Shown: in pieces, positions 2,601 through 16,601 of the stretch | Numbering within the stretch: the first letter of the stretch is position 1 | Layout: each line of letters starts with the position of its first letter | UHGV virus genome: UHGV-0088365 | Reading direction: 5' to 3' (one strand) | Source of the DNA: a virus | DNA: 16,601 nucleotides | Translations under genes and position numbers: made by a program | The notes under the pieces: model-generated | Seen by the model: only the letters and a program-made list of their open reading frames with translations | Told to the model about the DNA's origin: nothing | Databases searched by the model: none

Positions 2601-3212
2601 TCACGCAGAACTCCTTCTAACCAAAAGAACGCCATCTTCAGAAACAACGTTGCAGGACTTCAGGTAATTCATTGCCTCTTTCGGTAATGGATTCTTTGGA
2701 TCGGCGTTTGCCAGGGATTTCGATAACCTCATGATAAATTTGATCATTACCTTCTGGCGAAGCTTGTGCTCATGAGATAAAGAAAGGTAATAGGAAATGG
2801 TATGGGCTAAACGCTCACGAAGCTGTTCTGTGCCGTGATATACAGCAGCGATATCACGCAGTGCATTGACCAGTTCCCGGTAAATATGCGGAGCAACCTG
2901 GCATTCAATGTTGGTTGGTGACTCATAAATTACATTCAGCCCCAGCTTTTGAGCCAGCTCGTGCTCTGCACGAGCGCCAACTGATTCCTCCCACCCCTTG
3001 AGCAAATAGACCGCATTAGCCGAACGCACCATTGCAAGGCAAATATCTATGTATTCGCTCTCGCAGAGGCCAGCAGGTAACAGCGCCGGATTCAGAACAA
3101 TATGCCCTACCTCCATCAGCTCTTTTGCTTTCGAAAAAAACGCTGTGCGGTTGTAGTCGGGATAACCAGTCATCGGCCCCGCGATGTAAATTTTCATAAT
3201 GCGTTTTGACAT
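2601..3212 (-). CDS. DUF4406-like (nucleoside 2-deoxyribosyltransferase-like fold) protein with an unrecognised C-terminal extension, about 203 aa
   Basis: ATG at 3212 (MSKRIMKIYIAGPMTGYPDYNRTAFF...VGHIVLNPALLP...) preceded by GGGGAAA; TGATG overlap with the upstream small ORF. The IYIAGPMTG...N...NP pattern is typical of the DUF4406 / deoxyribosyltransferase-like family. The track ORF 2601..3239 uses an upstream TTG. Confidence 0.65.
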   Translation of the reverse strand: MSKRIMKIYIAGPMTGYPDYNRTAFFSKAKELMEVGHIVLNPALLPAGLCESEYIDICLAMVRSANAVYLLKGWEESVGARAEHELAQKLGLNVIYESPTNIECQVAPHIYRELVNALRDIAAVYHGTEQLRERLAHTISYYLSLSHEHKLRQKVMIKFIMRLSKSLANADPKNPLPKEAMNYLKSCNVVSEDGVLLVRRSSA

Positions 3213-3367
3213 CAAAGTTTCCCCAGGAACGTTACGCAAAAGTTGATGAGAGCAAAGAGTTCAATGCCCAGCTCAAACAACGCCAGGACAGTGAAAAACA
3301 GGACATATAGCAACCCAATTTCTGAACCGGATTGCTGGTGGATTGCACTAATTGCGACAAGCATCAT
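3212..3367 (-). CDS. Small hydrophobic membrane peptide, about 51 aa, first gene of the leftward operon
   Basis: Not in the ORF track (too short). ATGATG at 3367..3362 preceded by AGGAGG; translation MMLVAISAIHQQSGSEIGLLYVLFFTVLALFELGIELFALINFCVTFLGKL; stop TGA overlaps the ATG of the DUF4406-like gene. Confidence 0.45.
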   Translation of the reverse strand: MMLVAISAIHQQSGSEIGLLYVLFFTVLALFELGIELFALINFCVTFLGKL

Positions 3368-3408
3368 GACCTCCTGATATAGCGTCTGAAAAAAGTATCT
3401 TCATTTTG

Positions 3409-3438
3409 TGTTAGAAAATCAATTTTGATTTTCTAACA
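3409..3438. promoter_or_regulatory. Perfect 30-bp palindrome TGTTAGAAAATCAATTTTGATTTTCTAACA in the divergent intergenic region; putative operator
   Basis: Read directly: the two 14-nt arms TGTTAGAAAATCAA and TTGATTTTCTAACA are exact reverse complements with a 2-nt centre (TT). It lies between the leftward operon start (3367) and the Ref-like gene start (3484). Related half-sites occur at 4060-4069 and in the 13973-14013 inverted repeat. Confidence 0.6.
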
Positions 3439-3483
3439 TGTTTGATCAACCATAGCGGCTATGTAGACAAACCGGGTATTTCT

Positions 3484-4059
3484 ATGAAGCAAAGCTATTG
3501 GGAGAAACAGACACAAAAAGCCCTGCAAAAACTGGCTGATCCGAAATGGCGAGAGGAACAAAGGGCAAAGCGTCTTCAGCAAGCTCAACGCCAGCAGCAG
3601 CGTGCGCGAGAAAAAGCCGCATCGCCTGAATATCGGCAAAAGAAAATTGAAAAAGCGAAGCAATATGAACAGCGAAGAAAAGAGAAGGCCGCTTCTGCTC
3701 CTGTCAAAAAAACTCGCGCGTCACGCGGCCTGAAAGGCAGAACACTCACAGCAGATGAGCGCCGGATACAAACTGCCATCGGTGCTCTCCCCTGCATTGC
3801 CTGCCATATGCACGGACAGCATAGCCCTGTGGTATCCCTGCACCACATCTTCGGAAGAACAGCAGAGAACGCGCATAAATACGTCCTCCCTTTGTGTAAA
3901 TGGCACCATCAACACGCAGCGCCAGCAGAGATCCGCGAGCAATACCCCTGGTTGGTTCCTGTTCATGCTGATGGAAAAATAGGCGGTAAAGCAGATTTCA
4001 GGCGGCACAATGCTGATGAAATGACGTTGTATCAGATGGCGATTGAATTGATGAATTAG
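3484..4059 (+). CDS. Ref-like recombination-enhancement HNH-family nuclease (basic disordered N-terminus plus Cys/His-rich C-terminal core), 191 aa
   Basis: ATG at 3484 (MKQSYWEKQ...). The N-terminal half is very K/R/Q-rich; the C-terminal half has CIACHMHGQ...LHHIFGRT...CKWHHQ, consistent with an HNH-type metal-binding nuclease core as described for phage P1 Ref. The track ORF starts further upstream at 3442. Confidence 0.65.
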   Translation: MKQSYWEKQTQKALQKLADPKWREEQRAKRLQQAQRQQQRAREKAASPEYRQKKIEKAKQYEQRRKEKAASAPVKKTRASRGLKGRTLTADERRIQTAIGALPCIACHMHGQHSPVVSLHHIFGRTAENAHKYVLPLCKWHHQHAAPAEIREQYPWLVPVHADGKIGGKADFRRHNADEMTLYQMAIELMN

Positions 4060-8866: not shown

Positions 8867-8900
8867 AGCCTAGTAGTTTATGCTGGGCTTTCATTTTTTT
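8867..8900 (+). terminator. Intrinsic terminator after the SWIM-protein gene
   Basis: Stem AGCCTAG / CTGGGCT (7 bp with one G-U pair), 9-nt loop, followed by TTCATTTTTTT. The stop of the convergent minus-strand gene (8891) lies inside the T-run. Confidence 0.5.
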
Positions 8901-9619
8901 GAAAGATCAATTCCAGTATTATCAAACAAACTGGAAATATCAGACACCAATTTATTAAAATGCTTGTCATCATTATAGAATGATGTGCTTTTTATAGCGA
9001 CTATAAAATCACATAAATCTTGCGGAGATTCAATGCTAACCCCCTTATTTTTATATAGTTCAATAATACTGCCAACATCAGTATGCAATAGTTTTATCGC
9101 GCCACAAATTTCTCGCTGTTTCGTAACCAAGTCATTAAGTTTATTTTCATTTTCATCTAAGATTTGTTTTGAATATTTAGCGTCATTGGTTGCTTGATTT
9201 AACTTTGTTTTCTTTCTTTGCAATTCTATTCTTTTATCATAATCAGCAACTTCATCTAAATATCTTATTTCAGTGTATAATTTACTTGTTAGCTTAGATA
9301 TCTTCAGTGTGAGAACAGGAGCTAACACAGATGCAAATACTCCATAAATAAATGGGATTACAACGTGATAAACCCACGGGGATACAATCCAATTATCAAT
9401 GAACGGGACATTACCACCAACAGAAACAATAGATAATGTATATAGGATGTCGTCCTTTGACTTTAATATAATTAAAATATCCTTCCAGTTAAAAATTAGA
9501 AAAGAAATGACAACATATGCAAAAACCTTGTTAAATATTTTATCTTTTATTATTTCAGAAAATGATTTTAGTTCTGTTTCATTTATAGACGGATTATCTT
9601 TAACTTTTTCTGACATCAT
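8891..9619 (-). CDS. AT-rich membrane protein (two predicted TM helices) with coiled-coil-rich C-terminal domain, 242 aa; candidate abortive-infection or exclusion-type effector
   Basis: ORF-track ORF; ATGATG start at 9619 with AGGA 7 nt upstream. Predicted TM segments FAYVVISFLIFNW and WVYHVVIPFIYGVFASVLAPVLTL; K/E/N-rich helical C-terminus. Markedly AT-rich. No family recognised. Confidence 0.75.
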   Translation of the reverse strand: MMSEKVKDNPSINETELKSFSEIIKDKIFNKVFAYVVISFLIFNWKDILIILKSKDDILYTLSIVSVGGNVPFIDNWIVSPWVYHVVIPFIYGVFASVLAPVLTLKISKLTSKLYTEIRYLDEVADYDKRIELQRKKTKLNQATNDAKYSKQILDENENKLNDLVTKQREICGAIKLLHTDVGSIIELYKNKGVSIESPQDLCDFIVAIKSTSFYNDDKHFNKLVSDISSLFDNTGIDLSKK

Positions 9620-9640
9620 AGCTTATCCTGATTACTTTTA

Positions 9641-9841
9641 TTATGGATAGTTAAAAGATTCAACAGGTGATGGTGGTTGAATTGGGTAATGTTTCTTCTC
9701 GTACTCCTCAATGAGAAGACTCATAACCTCAAAGAAATCACCTTCCGGAGTATTCATTTCCGGTTCGTTATCGAACATCGGTTCGACCGCACGCAGTGCG
9801 GCCTCATAATCTTGTTCTGTACGGATAGGTTTAATGTTCAT
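9641..9841 (-). CDS. Small protein resembling only the N-terminal (non-HTH) domain of YgjM/HigA-type antitoxins, 66 aa
   Basis: ORF-track ORF; MNIKPIRTEQDYEAALRAVEPMFDNEPEMNTPEGDFFEVMSLLIEEYEKKHYPI follows the pattern of the N-terminal domain of E. coli K-12 HigA (...NEEQYTQALELVDHLL.NDPENPLLDLV...ITAWEE...) as I recall it, but there is no HTH domain. No Shine-Dalgarno sequence is evident. Confidence 0.5.
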   Translation of the reverse strand: MNIKPIRTEQDYEAALRAVEPMFDNEPEMNTPEGDFFEVMSLLIEEYEKKHYPIQPPSPVESFNYP

Positions 9842-9854
9842 TAATTACAAAGGA

Positions 9855-9885
9855 AAGCCCACTTGCTAAGTGGGCTTTTTGTATG
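9855..9885. terminator. Hairpin AAAGCCCACTT-gct-AAGTGGGCTTT followed by TTGTATGTGTTTT; terminator, strongest in the plus orientation
   Basis: Perfect 11-bp stem with 3-nt loop between the higA stop (9898) and the 66-aa ORF start (9841). The T-run is on the plus strand; the minus orientation has only TTTCCTTT. Confidence 0.5.
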
Positions 9886-9897
9886 TGTTTTACTATA

Positions 9898-10236
9898 TCA
9901 GGCTGCTTTTTTATTCAGGTTCCGCTGAGAAATAAATTTTTCAGCAGTATTGATACGACTTAACTCTTCCTGAACGCGCATATCATTTTCGACTTCCCAC
10001 AGATCTACTGCGGTCTGAAGATTAATCCAAAAATCTACAGAAGTATCGAATGCTTTTGCCAGGCGATATGCCATATCCATCGTTAGCTTACGATTGTTAT
10101 TAACAAGAGCACTTACGGTGTTACGATGAACATGAAGTATTTCTGCTAACTCGTTGATCTTCAGCTCTAACGGCTCCAGGTATTCGTACAGCAGGATATC
10201 ACCTACGGTCGTCGGTTTTCTGGTTGCCTGTTTCAT
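9898..10236 (-). CDS. higA: HigA-family antitoxin (XRE-type HTH), 112 aa
   Basis: ORF-track ORF; PTTVGDILLYEYLEPLELKINELAEILHVHRNTVSALVNNNRKLTMDMAYRLAKAFDTSVDFWINLQTAVDLW matches the HigA/VapI HTH antitoxin pattern; it lies downstream of a HigB-like toxin gene (toxin-first order typical of higBA). Confidence 0.8.
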   Translation of the reverse strand: MKQATRKPTTVGDILLYEYLEPLELKINELAEILHVHRNTVSALVNNNRKLTMDMAYRLAKAFDTSVDFWINLQTAVDLWEVENDMRVQEELSRINTAEKFISQRNLNKKAA

Positions 10237-10306: not shown

Positions 10307-10609
10307 TTAGTATTTGTGAGGGTCGAGATACAAGTCCTCGGCCTTTCCGTTAACCCACTTAAAAATTAACCTATATTGCTTATTCACCCTTACTGATGAA
10401 TAGCCATTTAGCTTCCCTGACAGTTCCTCATACCGATTACCTGGTGGTGATCTTAAATCCTTACAGGTAGTTGCGGCATTGATAATGTCCAACTTCCGTG
10501 ACAATGTCATATGAATATCAGGAGGTATCTTTCTATGTGGTGTTGAAAATTCAAAAAAATCATCAAGCCACGCATCCCTGAAATCCTTTATGTTAATTTT
10601 TTTGGTCAT
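10307..10609 (-). CDS. higB: HigB-like toxin (plasmid-maintenance killer protein, RelE/ParE superfamily), 100 aa
   Basis: ORF-track ORF; C-terminal half GNRYEELSGKLNGYSSVRVNKQYRLIFKWVNGKAEDLYLDPHKY follows the HigB pattern (...G.R.G.YS.RVN..YRL.F...NG.A..L...DYH) as I recall it; upstream GGAGGA. Confidence 0.8.
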   Translation of the reverse strand: MTKKINIKDFRDAWLDDFFEFSTPHRKIPPDIHMTLSRKLDIINAATTCKDLRSPPGNRYEELSGKLNGYSSVRVNKQYRLIFKWVNGKAEDLYLDPHKY

Positions 10610-10682: not shown

Positions 10683-10771
10683 TTTTATGAATTCCCCCTC
10701 CTTCATCCAAAATCACAATCTCCAGAAAATCTTCCTTTCGATACCTGACAGATCGACCTTTGAGGATGCTT

Positions 10772-11563
10772 ATGGGCCGTTTTGACGAATGGTTTGCTGA
10801 CGATGCAAACCTGGCAAGTAAGGAGTCAGAACATGACAGCACGCAGAGAGAAACGCCAGCGCCGATTGAAGCGAATGCAGGAGGCGCGCCGGAACATGGC
10901 AATACCGGTTCGGATTCATTCAGCATTCTGGAAGAGCAACCCGCCGCCCAAGCTGATAGCCATGATAATTTTGCTGATAGCAACGGTGGCCTTACTCCGG
11001 ATGCTGGCGAATCAGATATAGCCATACTTCCATCTTCCCTGGCTGGCAGAGAACCGACTCCACAGTTAAAAGCACGCTATAACGGGCATAAAGCCTTTAA
11101 CGACCAAATCCGCGCAGACTGGATGCTGATTATTGAATCCAGCCCAGACGCGTTTCAGGCTCTCTTATATCGACCAGATGTTGGCACATATGGGGTAGTC
11201 AGCGACGAAACAGGAGAAGAGTCATTCACTGAACTGGATAACAACCAACGCGAACTGACTTACCAGGAACCTGAAATCGTTTATGTGCTGGATAACCCTG
11301 ACGGGCGTGACTCTTTCCATGCGATTGACGCAGACGGTGAGCAGGATGGCTTAACCGATGATGTTCTGATTCTGCGTATTGCAGCAAATAACGTCCCCGT
11401 CGGCTCAATTCTTGAATGGAATGAAGAGATGGTAAACGGCGTAGCGCGCCGCTGGTGGTACGTGCACCGTATTTTTAGCTACGGCACACAGCATGTTGGT
11501 TCGCTTTACTACTGCATACCTGCCAGGAATTTTGATACGACTCAAAACGGAGTGATCGAATGA
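10772..11563 (+). CDS. Hypothetical protein with acidic, low-complexity N-terminal half, 263 aa
   Basis: ORF-track ORF 10760..11563 trimmed to the ATG at 10772 (GAGGA 5 nt upstream); ATGA overlap with the next gene. No family recognised. Confidence 0.7.
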   Translation: MGRFDEWFADDANLASKESEHDSTQRETPAPIEANAGGAPEHGNTGSDSFSILEEQPAAQADSHDNFADSNGGLTPDAGESDIAILPSSLAGREPTPQLKARYNGHKAFNDQIRADWMLIIESSPDAFQALLYRPDVGTYGVVSDETGEESFTELDNNQRELTYQEPEIVYVLDNPDGRDSFHAIDADGEQDGLTDDVLILRIAANNVPVGSILEWNEEMVNGVARRWWYVHRIFSYGTQHVGSLYYCIPARNFDTTQNGVIE

Positions 11564-12327
11564 CTTCAAATAAAACCCTCCTGGCGCGAACAGGTGAATG
11601 GCAAACCTCACGCACAGGAAAATTCCAGACCACGGGCTTTGAAAACGTGGATAACGCGTTTGCGACGCTAATCAGCAACATTTTTTCTGATATCTTACTG
11701 GTGGCCCCCGCGCCGGAAGAAAAACGCTTTGCGTCATTCCTGAATCGTCCACCAGCAGAGCGTGTCTATGTGGCCCGTTTCGACAATGCGATCGAGTTTC
11801 TTAAAGCAGTTCGTCGCGCAAATGCCGGGCAAGGGAGAAAACCTGAAAACCAGAACATTAACCGGGATGCTCTCCCCCTGGTCAATATCTCACGCACTAT
11901 GGATATCAATTATATCAACGATGATCAGCAGATTGACCGCAAAAAAGTAGCCAGTTTTTGCGAACCGGATACCGGAATGCCTTTAGCAGAACTGGAATAC
12001 ACCCAGGCCATTCTGACGTATGACGTTACGTTAATGGCAACTGATAAAGCGACCATGAGTCTGATGTGTAATTCGCTGGGCGCACGGCTTCGCCTGATGA
12101 CAGGTACACAATTTGAAGCAACCACTCACCTTGTTCGTGTCCCGGTCCCGCTGATTTGCTCGATACAGGATGCCAAAGAAGTCGGCTTTACGGATGTTTC
12201 AGCACCAATTGGAGAAGAGCGTATTTATGCCACACAAGCGCCGATAAGTGTGATTGCAGACGTGATCACAGCATGGGAGTTGGACGCAAAACGTATTATT
12301 ACCGAAACCTCGATATCTATGGGGTGA
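11560..12327 (+). CDS. Hypothetical protein, 255 aa
   Basis: ORF-track ORF; ATG at 11560 with GGAG upstream; translationally coupled to both neighbours. No family recognised. Confidence 0.7.
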   Translation: MTSNKTLLARTGEWQTSRTGKFQTTGFENVDNAFATLISNIFSDILLVAPAPEEKRFASFLNRPPAERVYVARFDNAIEFLKAVRRANAGQGRKPENQNINRDALPLVNISRTMDINYINDDQQIDRKKVASFCEPDTGMPLAELEYTQAILTYDVTLMATDKATMSLMCNSLGARLRLMTGTQFEATTHLVRVPVPLICSIQDAKEVGFTDVSAPIGEERIYATQAPISVIADVITAWELDAKRIITETSISMG

Positions 12328-12330
12328 TAA

Positions 12331-13311
12331 GTGGCCCAGGAGTTACAACAATATTTTCTACAGTCAGTGCTCATTAACGATAACAAAGTGCCACGAGACT
12401 GGATTTTTACCGCAGTATATGTAGAAAAAACCAGCCTCAAAGCCCCTTTGCTAAAACTGGAAATTCATGACGCTACCGGCACCGTAATTGATGACTGGAA
12501 AGCCAAATACGGTGCATCGCTGGTGGCTGAAATGGGCGATCCAAACGGTAATGCAGGCACTTTTAAAACAGATTTCTTTGTTACGTCTGCAATGCTGGCT
12601 GGTGATGTTGTTACCGTTATTGCTGTCAGTGAAGACGTGCGCAGGTTTAAGATCCCCTCCCCGCGCACAAATTTACATACCAACAAAACACCAGACGCTA
12701 TATTCAAGGCATATTCCGGCAAACTTAAAATTACCAGCAGCGTGCTAAAACGCGCAGTTACATATCATCTGAATGCCGGTGACAAACCGTCAAAAATGCT
12801 TTCGGAGATAGCGCGAGACAAAGGTGCATTGTGTTGGGTATGTCGGGGGGAATTTAACTTTTATACCCTGGCTGATCTGATGAAGCAAACGCCATCATTT
12901 ACCTACGAGGGGAATAACCCTAAAGCAGAATACACTTTGTCCAAAATGCGCCTACTCCAACAGGAACATGCGACAACAGCAAAGAATCAATATCGTTTTG
13001 TTGGGTATTCCATGACCGATGGCTACGTCGAATATGGCGATAGCTCACTCCCAGTGCGTTATATATCCGACTCTGATATGGAAACTCTTCGCAATATGCA
13101 GCTGTCTCTCGTCCCCAAAATGGATATAGAAGTCGCAGGCAATCCTGATATAAAACCGGGGATGGTAATAGAGATTATCGTATACCGCTATGACCAGGAA
13201 AACCGCATTGATGAATCAATGCCCCGTAAGCTGATAGTAAAAAATGTTGCGCACTTTGAGGACCGAGTAGGCTACACAACACGAATGATATTGGGAGTGC
13301 CTAACAAATGA
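12331..13311 (+). CDS. Hypothetical protein, 326 aa (GTG start); possibly a baseplate-hub-like protein given its position before the spike-like gene
   Basis: ORF-track ORF; GTG start 3 nt after the upstream stop; ATGA overlap with the downstream spike-like gene. The hub assignment is from gene order only, not from recognised sequence motifs. Confidence 0.65.
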   Translation: MAQELQQYFLQSVLINDNKVPRDWIFTAVYVEKTSLKAPLLKLEIHDATGTVIDDWKAKYGASLVAEMGDPNGNAGTFKTDFFVTSAMLAGDVVTVIAVSEDVRRFKIPSPRTNLHTNKTPDAIFKAYSGKLKITSSVLKRAVTYHLNAGDKPSKMLSEIARDKGALCWVCRGEFNFYTLADLMKQTPSFTYEGNNPKAEYTLSKMRLLQQEHATTAKNQYRFVGYSMTDGYVEYGDSSLPVRYISDSDMETLRNMQLSLVPKMDIEVAGNPDIKPGMVIEIIVYRYDQENRIDESMPRKLIVKNVAHFEDRVGYTTRMILGVPNK

Positions 13312-13961
13312 AGCGTAGAGCACAAATTGTTGGAACTGTGCACCCAGCAGGGCTTATGCGTGCTCAAGTCCGTGTTTTACCTGACTGGAATGGCGTTCCT
13401 GATGACGATCTACCCTGGGCGGAATACCTGTTACCCATCGGGAACGCTTTTGTACCTACAGTCAAAGGTGACCTGGTCTGGGTAGAGTTTCCTTATTTAG
13501 ATGTTAACGGTCGAATAGACACCAGACGCCCAATGATAGTTGGCGCGGCTCAGGATGCGCCTGGCGGAGTTCCAAACGTCGCGCCGGAGGCGTCAGGCAA
13601 TGGTAGCGGCTGGACGCCGCCGGAAGTAGATGGAGCACCTCCCCGCCCCCAAATCTCAGCAACGAAAGACTTCGTTATTCACCGCAACAATATTCTTGAA
13701 GTACGAACTGCTGGTGGCGGCTATGAAATTGCCAATACGGCAGCAGGCTCAAGGATTGGCATGAATGAGTCCGGGCAGATATATATCATTGGTCCGGCTG
13801 ATGTAATCGTGAATGCAGGAGGGAGTGTTAACGTCAAATCAGCCAACAACATCAATGTTAATGGGGAAAATATTGCTGTCACCGCTAACGGGGACATAGC
13901 TTTCAAGGCAGGGGGAACCTTTCAGGCCACTGCTGGCAACTTCGATTTCAAGAAAGGATAG
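13308..13961 (+). CDS. Baseplate-spike-like protein (gpV/gp45-type N-terminal OB-fold pattern plus Gly-rich beta-helix-like C-terminus), 217 aa
   Basis: ORF-track ORF. N-terminus IVGTV...RAQVRV...LPWAEYL...GDLVWVEF resembles the Phage_base_V pattern (compared from memory with Mu gp45 and P2 gpV); C-terminus has short repeats GGSVNVKSANNINVNGENIAVTANGDIAFKAGGTF typical of spike beta-helices. Confidence 0.6.
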   Translation: MKRRAQIVGTVHPAGLMRAQVRVLPDWNGVPDDDLPWAEYLLPIGNAFVPTVKGDLVWVEFPYLDVNGRIDTRRPMIVGAAQDAPGGVPNVAPEASGNGSGWTPPEVDGAPPRPQISATKDFVIHRNNILEVRTAGGGYEIANTAAGSRIGMNESGQIYIIGPADVIVNAGGSVNVKSANNINVNGENIAVTANGDIAFKAGGTFQATAGNFDFKKG

Positions 13962-13972
13962 AAAATGCACCC

Positions 13973-14013
13973 ATTTGTGTTAGATAATTAACGCATATTT
14001 TCTAACACAAATG
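13973..14013. promoter_or_regulatory. 13-bp perfect inverted repeat CATTTGTGTTAGA-N15-TCTAACACAAATG directly upstream of rdgC; related to the 3409-3438 palindrome
   Basis: Read directly; arms at 13973-13985 and 14001-14013. It shares the core TGTTAGA / TCTAACA with the two sites at 3409-3438 and 4060-4069. No T-run follows, so it does not look like an intrinsic terminator. Confidence 0.55.
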
Positions 14014-14020
14014 GTGAGAA

Positions 14021-14926
14021 ATGAGATCAGTCGCTTTCAAAAATATCTTCATCTATCGTCTTTCACGCGAAGTTAACTGGGATACCGCAGTAGTAAATGC
14101 AGCCCTTAGCAAGTTTGTGTTTACCCCATGCGGTTCTCAGGATATGGCTAAAGCTGGTTGGACCCCAATTCTTGGCGACAACCTCACCCATGAAAACCAG
14201 GGTTTTCTTCTGATGCAGCATAAACGAGAGGAAAAAATCCTGCCTTCTCAAGTACTCAAAGAAGAGTTACAGAAAAAAATCCTGAAACTTGAAGAAGAGC
14301 AAGACAGAAAGCTGAAGAAGACCGAAAAAGATTCGCTGAAGGATGAAGTGCTTCACTCTCTTCTTCCTCGTGCTTTCACGAGAAAATCACTCGCAAAAAT
14401 CCTGATCGACCGCAGCAACCATCTGGTATTCGTTGAGGCAAGCAGCGCCAAAAAGGCAGAGGACCAGCTGGCTTTATTGCGAAAATCGCTCGGCAGCCTG
14501 CCTGTCATTCCATTCACACCACGCGAACCGCTGGAAATTACAATGACCGAGTGGTTTAAAAACGGCTTCCCTGCCGGATTTACAGCAGGTGAAGACGCCA
14601 CATTAAAGGGTCTGCTCGATAATGGTGGTGCCGTTCGCTGTAACAAAGTTGATCTACAGTCCGACGAGATTATGTCTCACATTGAGGCGGGGAAAGTAGC
14701 TACGACCGTTGCAATTAACTGGATGGACCGCGCGTCGTTCAGAGTCAACGATGATATGAGTATCAAAGCCCTGACATTCTGTGATGATCTCTATGACCAG
14801 AACGACGATATCGACCGGGAGGATGTAGCACAACGATTTGATGCTGATTTCGTGCTCTTTACGGGCGAATTATCTGCACTGTTTAACGCGCTGGTGGAGG
14901 CCATTGGCGGTGAAGCAGAACGATAA
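14021..14926 (+). CDS. rdgC: RdgC-family recombination-associated protein, 301 aa
   Basis: ORF-track ORF; long colinear identity with E. coli RdgC as I recall it (FKN..YRLSRE..., FTPCGSQDMAKAGW, REEKILPS, KKTEKDSLKDEVLHSLLPRAF, ASSAKKAEDQLALLRKSLGSLPV). Confidence 0.9.
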   Translation: MRSVAFKNIFIYRLSREVNWDTAVVNAALSKFVFTPCGSQDMAKAGWTPILGDNLTHENQGFLLMQHKREEKILPSQVLKEELQKKILKLEEEQDRKLKKTEKDSLKDEVLHSLLPRAFTRKSLAKILIDRSNHLVFVEASSAKKAEDQLALLRKSLGSLPVIPFTPREPLEITMTEWFKNGFPAGFTAGEDATLKGLLDNGGAVRCNKVDLQSDEIMSHIEAGKVATTVAINWMDRASFRVNDDMSIKALTFCDDLYDQNDDIDREDVAQRFDADFVLFTGELSALFNALVEAIGGEAER

Positions 14927-15590
14927 TAACCGACCGCTTGTTGTGAGTCTTTGTGATTTTACGGGGGCAATGGTTGCCCCCTGGCTGGAATACGGTGTCG
15001 ATGCCGCTATCGTCGATCCACAGCACTTATCGACCAGTGACGAGCGGATGCAATCAGGTGCCGTTCTGACGCGTATTAGTGCGATCATCGATAGCGATGA
15101 AGTATACGCTTTTCTCCGTAAGAATTTGCAGCGCATCGTGTTTCTGGCCGGGTTCCCACCGTGTACTGACCTGGCTGTTTCCGGCGCGCGCTGGTTTTCG
15201 GACAAGGCTAATAAAGATCCGGTTTTCCAGTTCAAAGCAATGCAGGTTGTCTGGCAGTGTTATGACATTGCAAAGATGATCGGTTGTCCGTACATGATTG
15301 AAAATCCGGTCAGCAAAATATCGACATTCTGGCGTAAGCCAGATCACATCTTTCACCCTTACTTCTTCACTGCATATTGTCAGGAAGATAACTACACCAA
15401 AAAAACATGCCTCTGGAGCGGCCAGGGCTTTGTCATGCCTGATGCCCTAATGGACGAATCATTAGGCAAGCCAGATAACAGAATCCATGCCGCGCCACCA
15501 GGGCCTGACAGGGCTAATTTTCGAAGTGCTACTCCACATGGATTCGCAAAGGCAGTTTTCGAAGCGAATAAGGGGGTGCTCTATGAGTAA
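14910..15590 (+). CDS. Short DNA cytosine-5 methyltransferase-like protein (PC and ENV-like motifs), about 226 aa; start uncertain
   Basis: ORF-track ORF 14838..15590. I place the start at GTG 14910 (GGAGG 9 nt upstream), overlapping the rdgC 3' end; ATG 14970 is the alternative. GFPPCTDLAVSGARW resembles C5-MTase motif IV (GFPCQ.FS.AGK), MIENPVSKI resembles motif VI (ENV), and VVSLCDFTGAM sits where motif I would be but lacks the Gly-rich loop. Too short for a canonical stand-alone C5-MTase. Confidence 0.55.
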   Translation: MKQNDNNRPLVVSLCDFTGAMVAPWLEYGVDAAIVDPQHLSTSDERMQSGAVLTRISAIIDSDEVYAFLRKNLQRIVFLAGFPPCTDLAVSGARWFSDKANKDPVFQFKAMQVVWQCYDIAKMIGCPYMIENPVSKISTFWRKPDHIFHPYFFTAYCQEDNYTKKTCLWSGQGFVMPDALMDESLGKPDNRIHAAPPGPDRANFRSATPHGFAKAVFEANKGVLYE

Positions 15591-16488
15591 ATCTATAGCA
15601 AGCATAGCCATAGAAAAACAGGATACGATGGCTGAAATTAGCTATATGCGCACCATTCGGACTCCGGATGAATATGAGCGTCCGATCTTCAAATGGGTAG
15701 GCGGTAAATTCTCAGAGTTGCCTACAGTGCTTGAGCATCTACCACACGGCAAGCGGTTAATAGAACCGTTCGTTGGTGGCGGTTCTGTATTTACGAATGC
15801 AGGATTTCGCCACAACCTGCTTAATGATATTAACGGTGACCTGATTAACTTCTATCAGACATTGCAGCGAGAAGGACATTCGCTCGTCACGCTGTCATAT
15901 AGTTTTTTCCAAAATTACAACAACGCTGACGGTTACCTCGAAGTGCGTGAGGCATTTAACAGAGGAAAGTATGACCAGCTACATCATGCTGCCGCCTTTT
16001 TGTACCTTAATCGGCACTGTTTTAATGGCGTAACGCGGTACAACCAAAATCGCGAGTTCAACGTGGGGTATGGCAAATACAAAGCGCCCTACTTCCCACA
16101 TGCAGAGATGGAGGCATTTTTGGCTGATGACGTACTCAAAAACACGTCCTTTGTATCAGGTGACTTTGCTGGCGTCATCGAGGCGGCTGGTGAAGGCGAT
16201 GTGATTTTTTGCGATCCGCCGTATGAACCGCTGCCGGATACAGAAGGGTTTACCAGTTATTCAGGAAATAGCTTCCGTTTCGACGAACAGAAACGGCTGG
16301 TATCTCTATTGGTGGAAGCCCACCAGCGCGGCGCTAAGGTAGTGATTACAAATAGTGGTGCGCCAAGCATCCGTGAACTATATGAAGGAAACGGGTTTAA
16401 AGTACATCATATGGCAGCCAGACGGTCGGTTTCCTGCAAGGCGTCAACACGTGTAGTTGCTAACGATATAATTGCAATAATGAAGTAA
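15583..16488 (+). CDS. dam: DNA adenine methyltransferase, Dam family (N6-adenine, GATC-type), 301 aa
   Basis: ORF-track ORF 15487..16488 trimmed to the ATG at 15583 (AGGGGG upstream), overlapping the preceding stop by 8 nt. Motifs FKWVGGK, EPFVGGGSVF, FLYLNR...NG..RYN..EFNV and DPPY match E. coli Dam as I recall it. Confidence 0.9.
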   Translation: MSKSIASIAIEKQDTMAEISYMRTIRTPDEYERPIFKWVGGKFSELPTVLEHLPHGKRLIEPFVGGGSVFTNAGFRHNLLNDINGDLINFYQTLQREGHSLVTLSYSFFQNYNNADGYLEVREAFNRGKYDQLHHAAAFLYLNRHCFNGVTRYNQNREFNVGYGKYKAPYFPHAEMEAFLADDVLKNTSFVSGDFAGVIEAAGEGDVIFCDPPYEPLPDTEGFTSYSGNSFRFDEQKRLVSLLVEAHQRGAKVVITNSGAPSIRELYEGNGFKVHHMAARRSVSCKASTRVVANDIIAIMK

Positions 16489-16520
16489 AAAACGCCGCAG
16501 TAGCGGCGTTTACTTTTTTA
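16489..16520. terminator. Bidirectional intrinsic terminator (AACGCCGC-agta-GCGGCGTT with A-run upstream and T-run downstream)
   Basis: Read directly after the dam stop codon; it also lies 3' of the converging minus-strand partial ORF. Confidence 0.7.
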
Positions 16521-16541
16521 TGTGGCGAAATACCTATTAAC

Positions 16542-16601
16542 CTAACTTCGCCCAGGTATCACGCAGCCCAACGGTGCGGTTAAATACCGGTTTTTCCGCC
16601 G
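16542..16601 (-). CDS. 3' end of a converging gene (last about 19 codons, ...RRKNRYLTAPLGCVIPGRS-stop); identity unknown
   Basis: Minus-strand open frame from the window edge to a TAG at 16544..16542, followed by the bidirectional terminator. Too short to identify. Confidence 0.35.
   Translation of the reverse strand, partial: RRKNRYLTAPLGCVIPGRS

Follow-up and report, generated by a model that had tools for sequence, protein, structure and literature searches.

In bacteriophage P1, the uhr-hrdC-dmt operon, which lies after upfC, encodes an RdgC homolog (HrdC), a cytosine methyltransferase function, and Dam, in that order. The last two are joined in Dmt, a bifunctional protein of 754 amino acids in which a canonical PF00145 domain with a target-recognition region (∼470 aa) is fused to Dam. 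The C1 operator Odmt and the promoter Pdmt precede the hrdC-dmt genes, which are C1-controlled. Dam methylation is required at the P1 pac sites for packaging (PMC12707154). In the CRISPRi host that was used, none of uhr, hrdC, and dmt was essential for lytic growth of P1 (PMC10695390), so any role of a corresponding gene set would be accessory. A small phage cytosine methyltransferase has been characterized in K42, a virulent siphovirus (KarlJaspers-like Warwickvirus). The product of the 711-bp gene, K42 Dcm, raises 5-methylcytosine (5mC) on msDNA, as measured by LC-MS, and triggers Retron-Eco1/Ec86 (bioRxiv 10.1101/2023.08.16.553469; Wang et al., Cell Rep 2024). No rise in 5mC was seen with a C82A/E128A/K175A/K176A mutant, and the specificity of the enzyme for CCWGG is an assumption drawn from analogy to the host Dcm (bioRxiv 10.1101/2023.08.16.553469).

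The window analyzed here (the whole stretch of DNA, 16,601 nucleotides of virus genome UHGV-0088365) shares 98.9% identity with Escherichia phage D6 and 99.8% with E. coli plasmids. It contains three plus-strand genes, rdgC, a 226-residue open reading frame, and dam, which together correspond in D6 to the (uhr)-hrdC-dmt accessory operon of P1 (Table 1). The tight coupling of these genes described in the initial annotation was borne out by the open reading frame coordinates, which overlap by 17 and 8 nt; the 8-nt overlap of the dam start with the upstream stop is visible in ATGAGTAA. In P1 the operon includes uhr and follows upfC, whereas in the window uhr is absent and the operon directly follows the tail genes. 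The cytosine methyltransferase function is part of Dmt in P1 but a separate 226-residue protein in D6. The trio is also present on a contig of 85 kb, around a homolog of 64% identity; the RdgC, Gp23-like, and tail-length genes of this contig suggest a phage-plasmid. The trio is thus a D6-like (P1-family) phage-plasmid block, genuine but mostly ordinary. Because the GenBank record of phage D6 names all three genes and gives their putative functions, the trio matters little for discovery. The explanation that we favor, at a probability of roughly 0.72, is that this is a D6-type hrdC-dmt-like operon under its own C1-type control, in which an active compact C5 enzyme and Dam mark phage DNA. The observations cover the identity and overlap of the genes, their family membership, fold and residue conservation, the synteny with P1, and the recurrence of the operator motif; the activity and target sequence of the 226-residue protein, repressor binding, and the biological roles are inferred.

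Table 1. Positions of genes and candidate regulatory elements of the rdgC-dam region in the window
Feature	Position	Strand	Basis
Weak sigma-70-like promoter candidate (TAGAAA, 18-nt spacer, GATAAT)	13959..13988	+	Consensus scan, 9/12 matches
18-nt inverted repeat, CCATTTGTGTTAGATAAT / ATTTTCTAACACAAATGG, 8-nt spacer	13971..14014	.	Arms 94% complementary
rdgC (P1 hrdC homolog), recombination-associated DNA-binding protein, 301 aa	14021..14926	+	ATG 14021, TAA 14926
Compact C5-cytosine methyltransferase-like protein, 226 aa, phage 'Dcm-like' family, = D6 orf64	14910..15590	+	GTG 14910, TAA 15590
dam, standalone Dam-family N6-adenine DNA methyltransferase, 301 aa	15583..16488	+	ATG 15583 after GGGGG run, TAA 16488
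Bidirectional intrinsic terminator shared with convergent glnS	16490..16511	.	9-bp stem, 6 GC pairs, T-runs on both strands

The assignments of the two outer genes made in the initial annotation were upheld by profile searches. RdgC gave a full-length match to PF04381 (E 6e-102, 341.4 bits against a cutoff of 25), exceeded the cutoff of NCBIfam NF001462 (381.8 against 330 bits), matched phrog_724 (E 9e-124), and is 52% identical to P1 HrdC across its full length. It has the same length as E. coli RdgC, from which it differs in being a phage-plasmid-borne paralog of the P1 HrdC type; by analogy with the E. coli protein, it would be expected to bind DNA and restrain RecA. Dam, like its relatives in E. 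coli and T4, matched PF02086 (E 6.7e-56, 190.3 bits against a cutoff of 22) and TIGR00571 (243.7 against 114.85 bits) over its full length, and its translation contains the DPPY catalytic motif (FCDPPYEP), consistent with methylation of GATC. It is 69% identical to residues 478–753 of P1 Dmt but falls below the cutoff of the host Dam equivalog NF008152 (235.6 against 441 bits). An N-terminal extension of 22–32 residues has no counterpart in Dam and corresponds to the linker of P1 Dmt; in-frame ATG codons at 15628 and 15646 may serve as alternative starts.

The GTG start of the middle gene is preceded by GGAGG at 14895–14899. On a plasmid of 99.8% identity, NCBI PGAP instead starts this gene at ATG 14970 and labels it hypothetical, which is probably wrong because that start would remove a conserved strand together with motif I. 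In RefSeq (PGAP) records of D6-like plasmids, the cytosine methyltransferase-like gene is truncated and hypothetical, and the intact dam gene is flagged as a pseudogene; the methylation capacity of the D6-like phage-plasmids common in E. coli and Salmonella is therefore under-reported.

Inspection of the 226-residue polypeptide revealed the PC motif (FPPCTDLAVSG, the cysteine being Cys-85) and the ENV-like motif (IENPVS, the glutamate being Glu-131) that had been noted earlier, in the order IV then VI. Also as noted, a clear glycine loop of motif I is missing, the sequence being SLCDFTG instead of FxGxG with the last glycine alone kept, and so is a target-recognition domain. At the place of the latter, between motifs VIII and IX, there are just ∼35 residues (172–209), which are highly conserved, and no separate small target-recognition domain was seen in the predicted model.

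The protein matched phrog_757 (E 4.3e-78, residues 2–224), a family with at least 7,924 homologs at 90% clustering and 1592 representatives at 50% identity, mostly of 200–260 residues, and matches were present in 1591 phage records. Cys-85, Glu-131, and Lys-164 are invariant in a family alignment of 70 diverse sequences, in which motif I varies, and 50 columns are invariant within the closer clade. PF00145 gave no match, as the initial annotation had suspected it might not, and neither did any other Pfam family at E values up to 1 or any NCBIfam model. The compact family is thus without a Pfam or NCBIfam model despite its presence in ∼1,600 sequenced phages and one experimentally active member. 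In the nin region of lambdoid prophages, homologs of 59% identity occur on their own, flanked by ninB and ninE and with neither Dam nor RdgC nearby, which rules out an obligate partnership of the compact enzyme with either protein. In one metagenomic protein the compact domain is fused straight to Dam. An apparent fusion of RdgC to the middle gene product (P0004) was seen on one contig of 1 kb and has the appearance of an indel artifact.

The structure of the 226-residue protein was predicted with confidence (pLDDT 87), and the best structural matches of the model were DNMT3B, a prophage C5-methyltransferase, and a C5-carboxymethyltransferase. The model has a class I methyltransferase fold closest to C5 DNA enzymes, and this match, together with the PC and ENV motifs and the lack of a PF00145 match, agrees with the earlier description of a non-canonical C5-methyltransferase-like protein. 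Its likeness to canonical C5 DNA methyltransferases (M.HhaI, Dcm, and DNMT3) extends to the Rossmann-type fold and to motifs IV (PC), VI (ENV-like), and VIII-like in the same order. In contrast to those enzymes, it has neither a PF00145 match nor a target-recognition domain, motif I is degenerate, lysines occupy the place of the motif VIII arginines, and it is approximately two-thirds as long as the shortest canonical enzymes among the structural matches listed (291–388 aa).

The relationship to canonical enzymes was not apparent at the level of sequence. Neither phmmer nor two profile searches of PDB sequences with the protein or its family returned a significant canonical C5-methyltransferase; the family profile aligned just one PDB sequence in register, that of DNMT2, at a non-significant E value of 0.61. 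No sequence similarity to the C5 domain of P1 Dmt was detectable: BLASTP against the N-terminal half of Dmt found nothing significant, and two hhalign runs against it gave a probability of 0.2, although the PC and ENV motifs were in register in this weak alignment. A homolog search from the Dmt C5 domain recovered close P1-type proteins alone (69–99% identity), which could not serve as the basis of a broad canonical profile. Given that the N-terminal half of P1 Dmt is a canonical PF00145 domain, a cytosine methyltransferase nonetheless occupies the same slot in both phages.

A Warwickvirus homolog that has exactly the residue numbering of the K42 Dcm mutant is 36.9% identical to the 226-residue protein (tblastn E 2e-32), and Cys-85, Glu-131, Lys-164, and Lys-165 correspond to Cys-82, Glu-128, Lys-175, and Lys-176 of K42 Dcm. 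The two proteins (226 and 236 residues) belong to the same compact family, share the Cys/Glu/Lys-Lys set, and both lack a target-recognition domain. They differ in motif I, which K42 Dcm keeps in the canonical form FDGSG (SLFDGSG) and the D6 clade replaces with CDFTG, and in setting, dcm of K42 being placed among replication genes and not beside rdgC and dam as in D6. Because the catalytic residues of the 5mC-making K42 enzyme are kept, the 226-residue protein is probably active rather than dead. It would be a SAM-dependent C5-cytosine DNA methyltransferase of the compact phage 'Dcm-like' family, in which Cys-85 would attack C6 of cytosine and Glu-131 would protonate N3, with Lys-164 and Lys-165 standing for the motif VIII arginines and the short, highly conserved loop (residues ∼172–209) replacing the target-recognition domain. 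Since motif I is degenerate, reading SLCDFTG and not SLFDGSG as in the characterized relative, however, SAM binding in the D6 clade is best regarded as putative.

The initial annotation had also allowed for an inactive enzyme. Such a relic, serving only as a DNA-binding or regulatory partner of, for example, Dam or RdgC, would fit a motif I in which the first FxGxG glycine is missing and which differs among family members, as well as the failure of any C5-methyltransferase HMM to detect the protein and its hypothetical label in PGAP. It is very improbable given the invariance of the nucleophilic cysteine, the ENV glutamate, and the motif VIII lysine across the 70 sequences, the 50 invariant columns of the closer clade, and the production of 5mC in vivo by the 37%-identical K42 Dcm; the solitary lambdoid homologs indicate, moreover, that no partner is needed. 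Less remote, but still decidedly unlikely, is an active cysteine-dependent pyrimidine C5 methyltransferase whose real substrate is not a double-stranded DNA motif but single-stranded or hairpin DNA, RNA or tRNA (as for DNMT2), or almost any sequence. The absence of a target-recognition domain is in keeping with this, as is the near invariance of the loop that replaces it, which suggests one fixed substrate family-wide; in addition, DNMT2, which provided the sole in-register PDB alignment, is a tRNA methyltransferase, and the one characterized substrate of a relative, retron msDNA, is a single-stranded DNA stem-loop. The P1 slot, on the other hand, is filled by a canonical DNA C5-methyltransferase fused to Dam, and a natural fusion of the compact domain to Dam exists, both of which point to DNA, and the best fold matches are DNA enzymes and not RNA enzymes. 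A long shot of a related kind is that the D6 clade, defined by motif I CDxTG and the invariant mini-loop, modifies cytosine by an undescribed mode of recognition, be it near-sequence-independent or structure-specific m5C formation, use of a non-SAM cofactor, or recognition borrowed from the coupled, sometimes fused, Dam.

Upstream of rdgC, the promoter candidate overlaps the inverted repeat listed in Table 1. Sites of this type found by consensus scan before rdgC were no commoner than in shuffled sequence, and the promoter candidate, weak alone, gains its value from this overlap. A 21-mer related to the repeat, AAATTGATTTTCTAACACAAA, occurs nine times in D6 (five or fewer mismatches) as compared with zero to three times in 20 shuffles. 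Copies are found in front of c1, lpa, repL/icd, orf52, ref, cre, and rdgC (twice in the last case), and a second inverted pair is present upstream of ref, within the window. Just 8–11 of 17 positions match the P1 C1 operator consensus. By analogy, the repeat is probably a bivalent operator for a C1-type repressor, and because it resembles sites at the genome positions of P1 C1 operators, the trio is probably under its own repressor control.

The initial annotation had placed the trio at the end of the rightward tail-gene operon. In a fuller form of that reading, the genes would be the distal part of a late tail/baseplate operon and the repeat would act in the RNA, as a hairpin for processing or attenuation that masks the rdgC ribosome-binding site, rather than as an operator. 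The layout accommodates this: genes from 10760 to 16488 are on a single strand with short gaps throughout, the baseplate gene stops at 13961, only 59 nt before rdgC, and no T-run terminator was found in front of rdgC. The RNA of the repeat is predicted to form a stable hairpin (−21.3 kcal/mol, z −5.5) that takes in the initial bases of GGTGAG, the Shine-Dalgarno sequence of rdgC, and the candidate promoter matches the consensus only weakly. What a hairpin in the RNA leaves unexplained, however, is why eight further intergenic sites in D6 carry the motif, placed as the C1 operators are in P1 (before c1, lpa, repL/icd, ref, and cre), or why it again forms an inverted pair before ref, and the homologous P1 operon is C1-controlled. 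The tail-operon reading is on balance unlikely, although the RNA-element and operator readings of the repeat are mutually compatible. With a promoter-like site and an operator-like inverted repeat before rdgC, the trio is probably not merely the end of the tail operon. In the favored explanation, the trio would be transcribed from its own promoter and shut off in the prophage by the inverted pair of C1-repressor-type operators, with read-through from the tail genes also possible. The overlapping cistrons would be translationally coupled, and transcription would stop at the bidirectional terminator after dam, on the far side of which the minus-strand glnS gene has its 3′ end at 16537.

With the trio read as a C1-type-controlled methyltransferase operon, both enzymes would mark replicating phage DNA and so may protect it from m5C- or m6A-sensitive restriction enzymes. 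Self-methylation against host restriction, as first proposed, is thus plausible but would not be the sole role: P1 pac sites need Dam methylation for packaging (PMC12707154), and in D6, GATC sites are clustered most densely within the pacA homolog. By analogy with P1, pac cleavage and further steps that depend on GATC are probably licensed or timed by Dam methylation as well. Site-avoidance analysis was uninformative on these roles, GATC being not avoided and CCWGG over-represented. A relative of Dam is a known trigger of Retron-Sen2, as is a relative of Dcm for Retron-Eco1, and since relatives of both triggers are carried together, they may affect the host range of D6-like phage-plasmids.

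The initial annotation described rdgC, a short C5-methyltransferase-like gene (here the middle gene) and dam as a tightly coupled trio, and the coordinates and both overlaps were borne out by the ORF list and a reading of the junctions. The middle gene starts 17 nt within rdgC, with GGAGG upstream at 14895-14899, and it overlaps dam by 8 nt at ATGAGTAA, with a GGGGG run immediately 5'. A terminator common to dam and the convergent, phage-plasmid-borne glnS closes the block. Over its 2.5 kb, the region shares 98.9% identity with Escherichia phage D6 (a P1-family phage-plasmid). Among 5426 complete E. coli genomes, 101 match it at up to 99.8% identity, on plasmids every time and never on a chromosome. 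The trio is real and its initial reading holds for the most part, and its operon was previously annotated in D6: the GenBank record carries all three genes with matching boundaries, labeling the middle gene (orf64) 'putative DNA-cytosine methylase' and dam (orf63) 'site-specific DNA-adenine methylase, similar to C-term half of P1 dmt only'.

Features of the window discussed in the text
Feature	Position	Strand	Details
DUF4406 protein gene	2601-3239	-	212 aa; E 5e-34
Second inverted pair	~3395-3440		CATTTTGTGTTAGAAAATCAA / TTGATTTTCTAACATG
Ref-type RecA-dependent nuclease gene	3442-4059	+	PF16786, E 2e-36
D6 orf73	8891-9619	-	242 aa
HigB-like toxin and HTH_3 antitoxin genes	9898-10236 and 10307-10609	-	toxin PF05015, E 4e-35
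Inverted repeat, 18-nt arms	13971-13988 and 13997-14014		in 59-nt gap before rdgC; arms 94% complementary
rdgC	14021-14926	+	301 aa
Middle gene (D6 orf64)	GTG 14910 to 15590	+	226 aa; frame open from 14838
dam (D6 orf63)	ATG 15583 to 16488	+
Terminator	16490-16511	both	9-bp GC-rich stem, T-run on each strand
glnS 3' end (D6 orf62)	16537-16601	-	glutaminyl-tRNA synthetase

In the automated (PGAP) annotation of NZ_CP061103.1, a 99.8%-identical plasmid, the middle gene begins instead at ATG 14970 (to 15590), and the resulting 206-aa 'hypothetical protein' lacks motif I and the conserved first strand. The same annotation gives dam as 15670-16488 and flags this intact gene as a pseudogene 'missing N-terminus', which presumably reflects the use of the fused P1 Dmt as reference.

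RdgC matched PF04381 (E 6e-102), scored above the cutoff of the NCBIfam RdgC model and is 52% identical to P1 HrdC over its full length. Dam matched PF02086 and TIGR00571, both above their cutoffs, carries a DPPY motif and shares 69% identity with residues 478-753 of P1 Dmt, a fusion whose N-terminal half is a canonical PF00145 C5-methyltransferase. The P1 record gives the gene order uhr-hrdC-dmt, with transcription from promoter Pdmt governed by the C1 operator Odmt. This synteny, together with the identities, indicates that the window holds the D6 version of an operon known from P1, the matching slot again encoding a cytosine-methyltransferase function.

Neither BLAST nor hhalign detected similarity between the middle protein itself and the C5 domain of P1 Dmt. 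It went unmatched in a Pfam scan, by which the HMM search for PF00145 proposed in the initial annotation was run, had no NCBIfam match and found nothing significant among PDB sequences. It did match phrog_757 ('DNA methyltransferase') over its full length (E 4e-78). Homologs number at least 7,924 at 90% clustering; at 50% clustering the compact family has 1592 representatives, 118 of them with E < 1e-30, and almost all are 200-260 aa long. Among the matches listed at 90% clustering, none had a Pfam domain apart from one artefactual RdgC read-through. By tblastn, 1591 phage records were matched, chiefly Escherichia, Klebsiella and Salmonella phages but extending to phages of Campylobacter, Flavobacterium, Vibrio and others, with labels varying from hypothetical to cytosine methylase. 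The middle protein is a member of a known, partly characterized phage family rather than a novel kind of enzyme. In BFVD, the compact methyltransferase-like fold also occurs as one domain of two very large proteins of uncultured phages, A0A6J5NPY6 (1126 aa) and A0A6J5SE15 (1397 aa), one of which is annotated with a helicase/UvrB N-terminal domain.

The motifs of the middle protein follow the canonical order: SLCDFTG at the motif I position, VDPQH at the end of strand 2, FPPCTDLAVSG (motif IV), IENPVS (motif VI), YTKKTCLW at the motif VIII position and a C-terminal helix, RANFRSATPHGFAKAV. The PC and ENV-like motifs noticed initially are thus present. Weak profile alignments, both short of significance, lined up PC and ENV with those of P1 Dmt, and motifs I to IV with their DNMT2 counterparts. 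The reported lack of a clear motif I Gly loop also holds, the clade of the middle protein having CDxTG where K42 Dcm, a characterized compact relative, has the canonical FDGSG. Likewise, neither the sequence nor the structural model contains a target-recognition domain; in its place is a short loop (residues 172-209) of lower model confidence, nearly invariant within the close clade.

These departures had led the initial annotation to allow for an inactive enzyme, an option now disfavored by a relative of demonstrated activity. Mutants of the Drexlerviridae phage K42 that escape retron Ec86 have lost a 711-bp 'Dcm-like' gene, whose expression raises 5mC in msDNA by LC-MS and is toxic together with the retron; the C82A/E128A/K175A/K176A mutant is inert (preprint 10.1101/2023.08.16.553469; published as Wang et al., Cell Rep 2024, per PMC12640716). 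Warwickvirus phage tuinn has a homolog that, when translated from its internal ATG, is likewise 711 bp and has C82 (PPC), E128 (ENP) and K175-K176 (FKKTCLW) in the exact K42 Dcm numbering; it is 36.9% identical to the middle protein (E 2e-32). The counterparts in the middle protein are C85, E131 and K164-K165, and C85, E131 and K164 were invariant in an alignment of 70 sequences that share 34-50% identity with it. On the strength of residue conservation and the active relative, the middle protein very probably has C5 methyltransferase activity and is no relic, with the CDxTG sequence of its clade as a caution. Site choice by a 226-aa enzyme that lacks a target-recognition domain is a question for the family as a whole; the CCWGG specificity claimed for K42 Dcm had been carried over from host Dcm as an assumption, with msDNA mutants as sole support (10.1101/2023.08.16.553469).

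The middle protein does not need RdgC or Dam as neighbors. In Cronobacter lambdoid prophages, homologs of 59% identity are found on their own, flanked by ninB and ninE/ninF, and the Dhillonvirus and Warwickvirus homologs are encoded amid replication genes. The order RdgC, compact enzyme, Dam is retained on an 85-kb contig with a 64%-identical homolog, judged a phage-plasmid by gene content. A metagenomic protein of 563 aa (P0121; coding region 218-1909, on a single 2-kb contig only) contains a compact domain (65% identical to the middle protein) and a Dam domain (49% identity with the window Dam) joined by a linker, paralleling the P1 Dmt fusion but with the compact enzyme. P1-type Dmt also occurs in two forms, a 762-aa fusion and a standalone 473-aa C5 enzyme. 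The recurring Dam association and the fused and standalone forms indicate that the two methyltransferase functions act as an exchangeable module. A second apparent fusion, in which the RdgC C-terminus is read into the whole middle protein (P0004, 305 aa, 1-kb ENA contig), is unlikely to be real, a 1-nt indel or assembly error being most likely.

The inverted repeat before rdgC overlaps a weak promoter-like site, TAGAAA-18-GATAAT. In the D6 genome, assembled from three segments for the count, the 21-mer AAATTGATTTTCTAACACAAA had 9 sites at ≤5 mismatches, as against 0-3 (mean ~0.45) in 20 shuffles. The sites are intergenic by the D6 annotation: upstream of c1, lpa, orf52, ref and cre, between repL and icd, adjoining the pmgS and pmgR homologs and, as an inverted pair, upstream of rdgC. 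Most of these correspond to positions of C1 operators in P1, with Odmt, Oc4, OrepL and Oban confirmed in the P1 record. The motif matches just 8-11 of 17 positions of the P1 operator consensus. As in P1, the trio probably has a promoter of its own under repressor control, and it is probably not just the end of the rightward operon in which the initial annotation placed it. As RNA, the repeat would fold into a stable hairpin (-21.3 kcal/mol, z -5.5) extending into the rdgC ribosome-binding site, and, speculatively, rdgC might be poorly translated from transcripts that read through from the tail genes.

The second inverted pair, an operator-like repeat of like kind, lies directly 5' of the Ref-type nuclease gene. 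E. coli RdgC inhibits RecA, and judging from these repeats Ref and RdgC, both acting via RecA, may be under one common repressor. Shortly before the repeat preceding ref, on the other strand, is the DUF4406 gene.

It is plausible that both methyltransferases self-methylate against restriction; the D6 genome showed no avoidance of GATC or CCWGG, which fits self-methylation without discriminating power. According to a review, P1 packaging requires Dam methylation at pac sites, and dmt is required in Dam- hosts (PMC12707154). A CRISPRi screen of P1 scored uhr, hrdC and dmt alike as dispensable for lytic growth (PMC10695390). In D6, GATC sites are densest within the pacA homolog (five in 135 bp, MF356679 3715-3849), reminiscent of the Dam-regulated P1 pac site.

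Elsewhere in the window, the HigB-like/HTH_3 toxin-antitoxin pair is encoded on the opposite strand, with tail and baseplate genes to either side. GC content falls to 31-35% in a stretch within 9001-10000 (~47% elsewhere), and the orf73 protein encoded there, which had no Pfam match, looks like recently acquired cargo.
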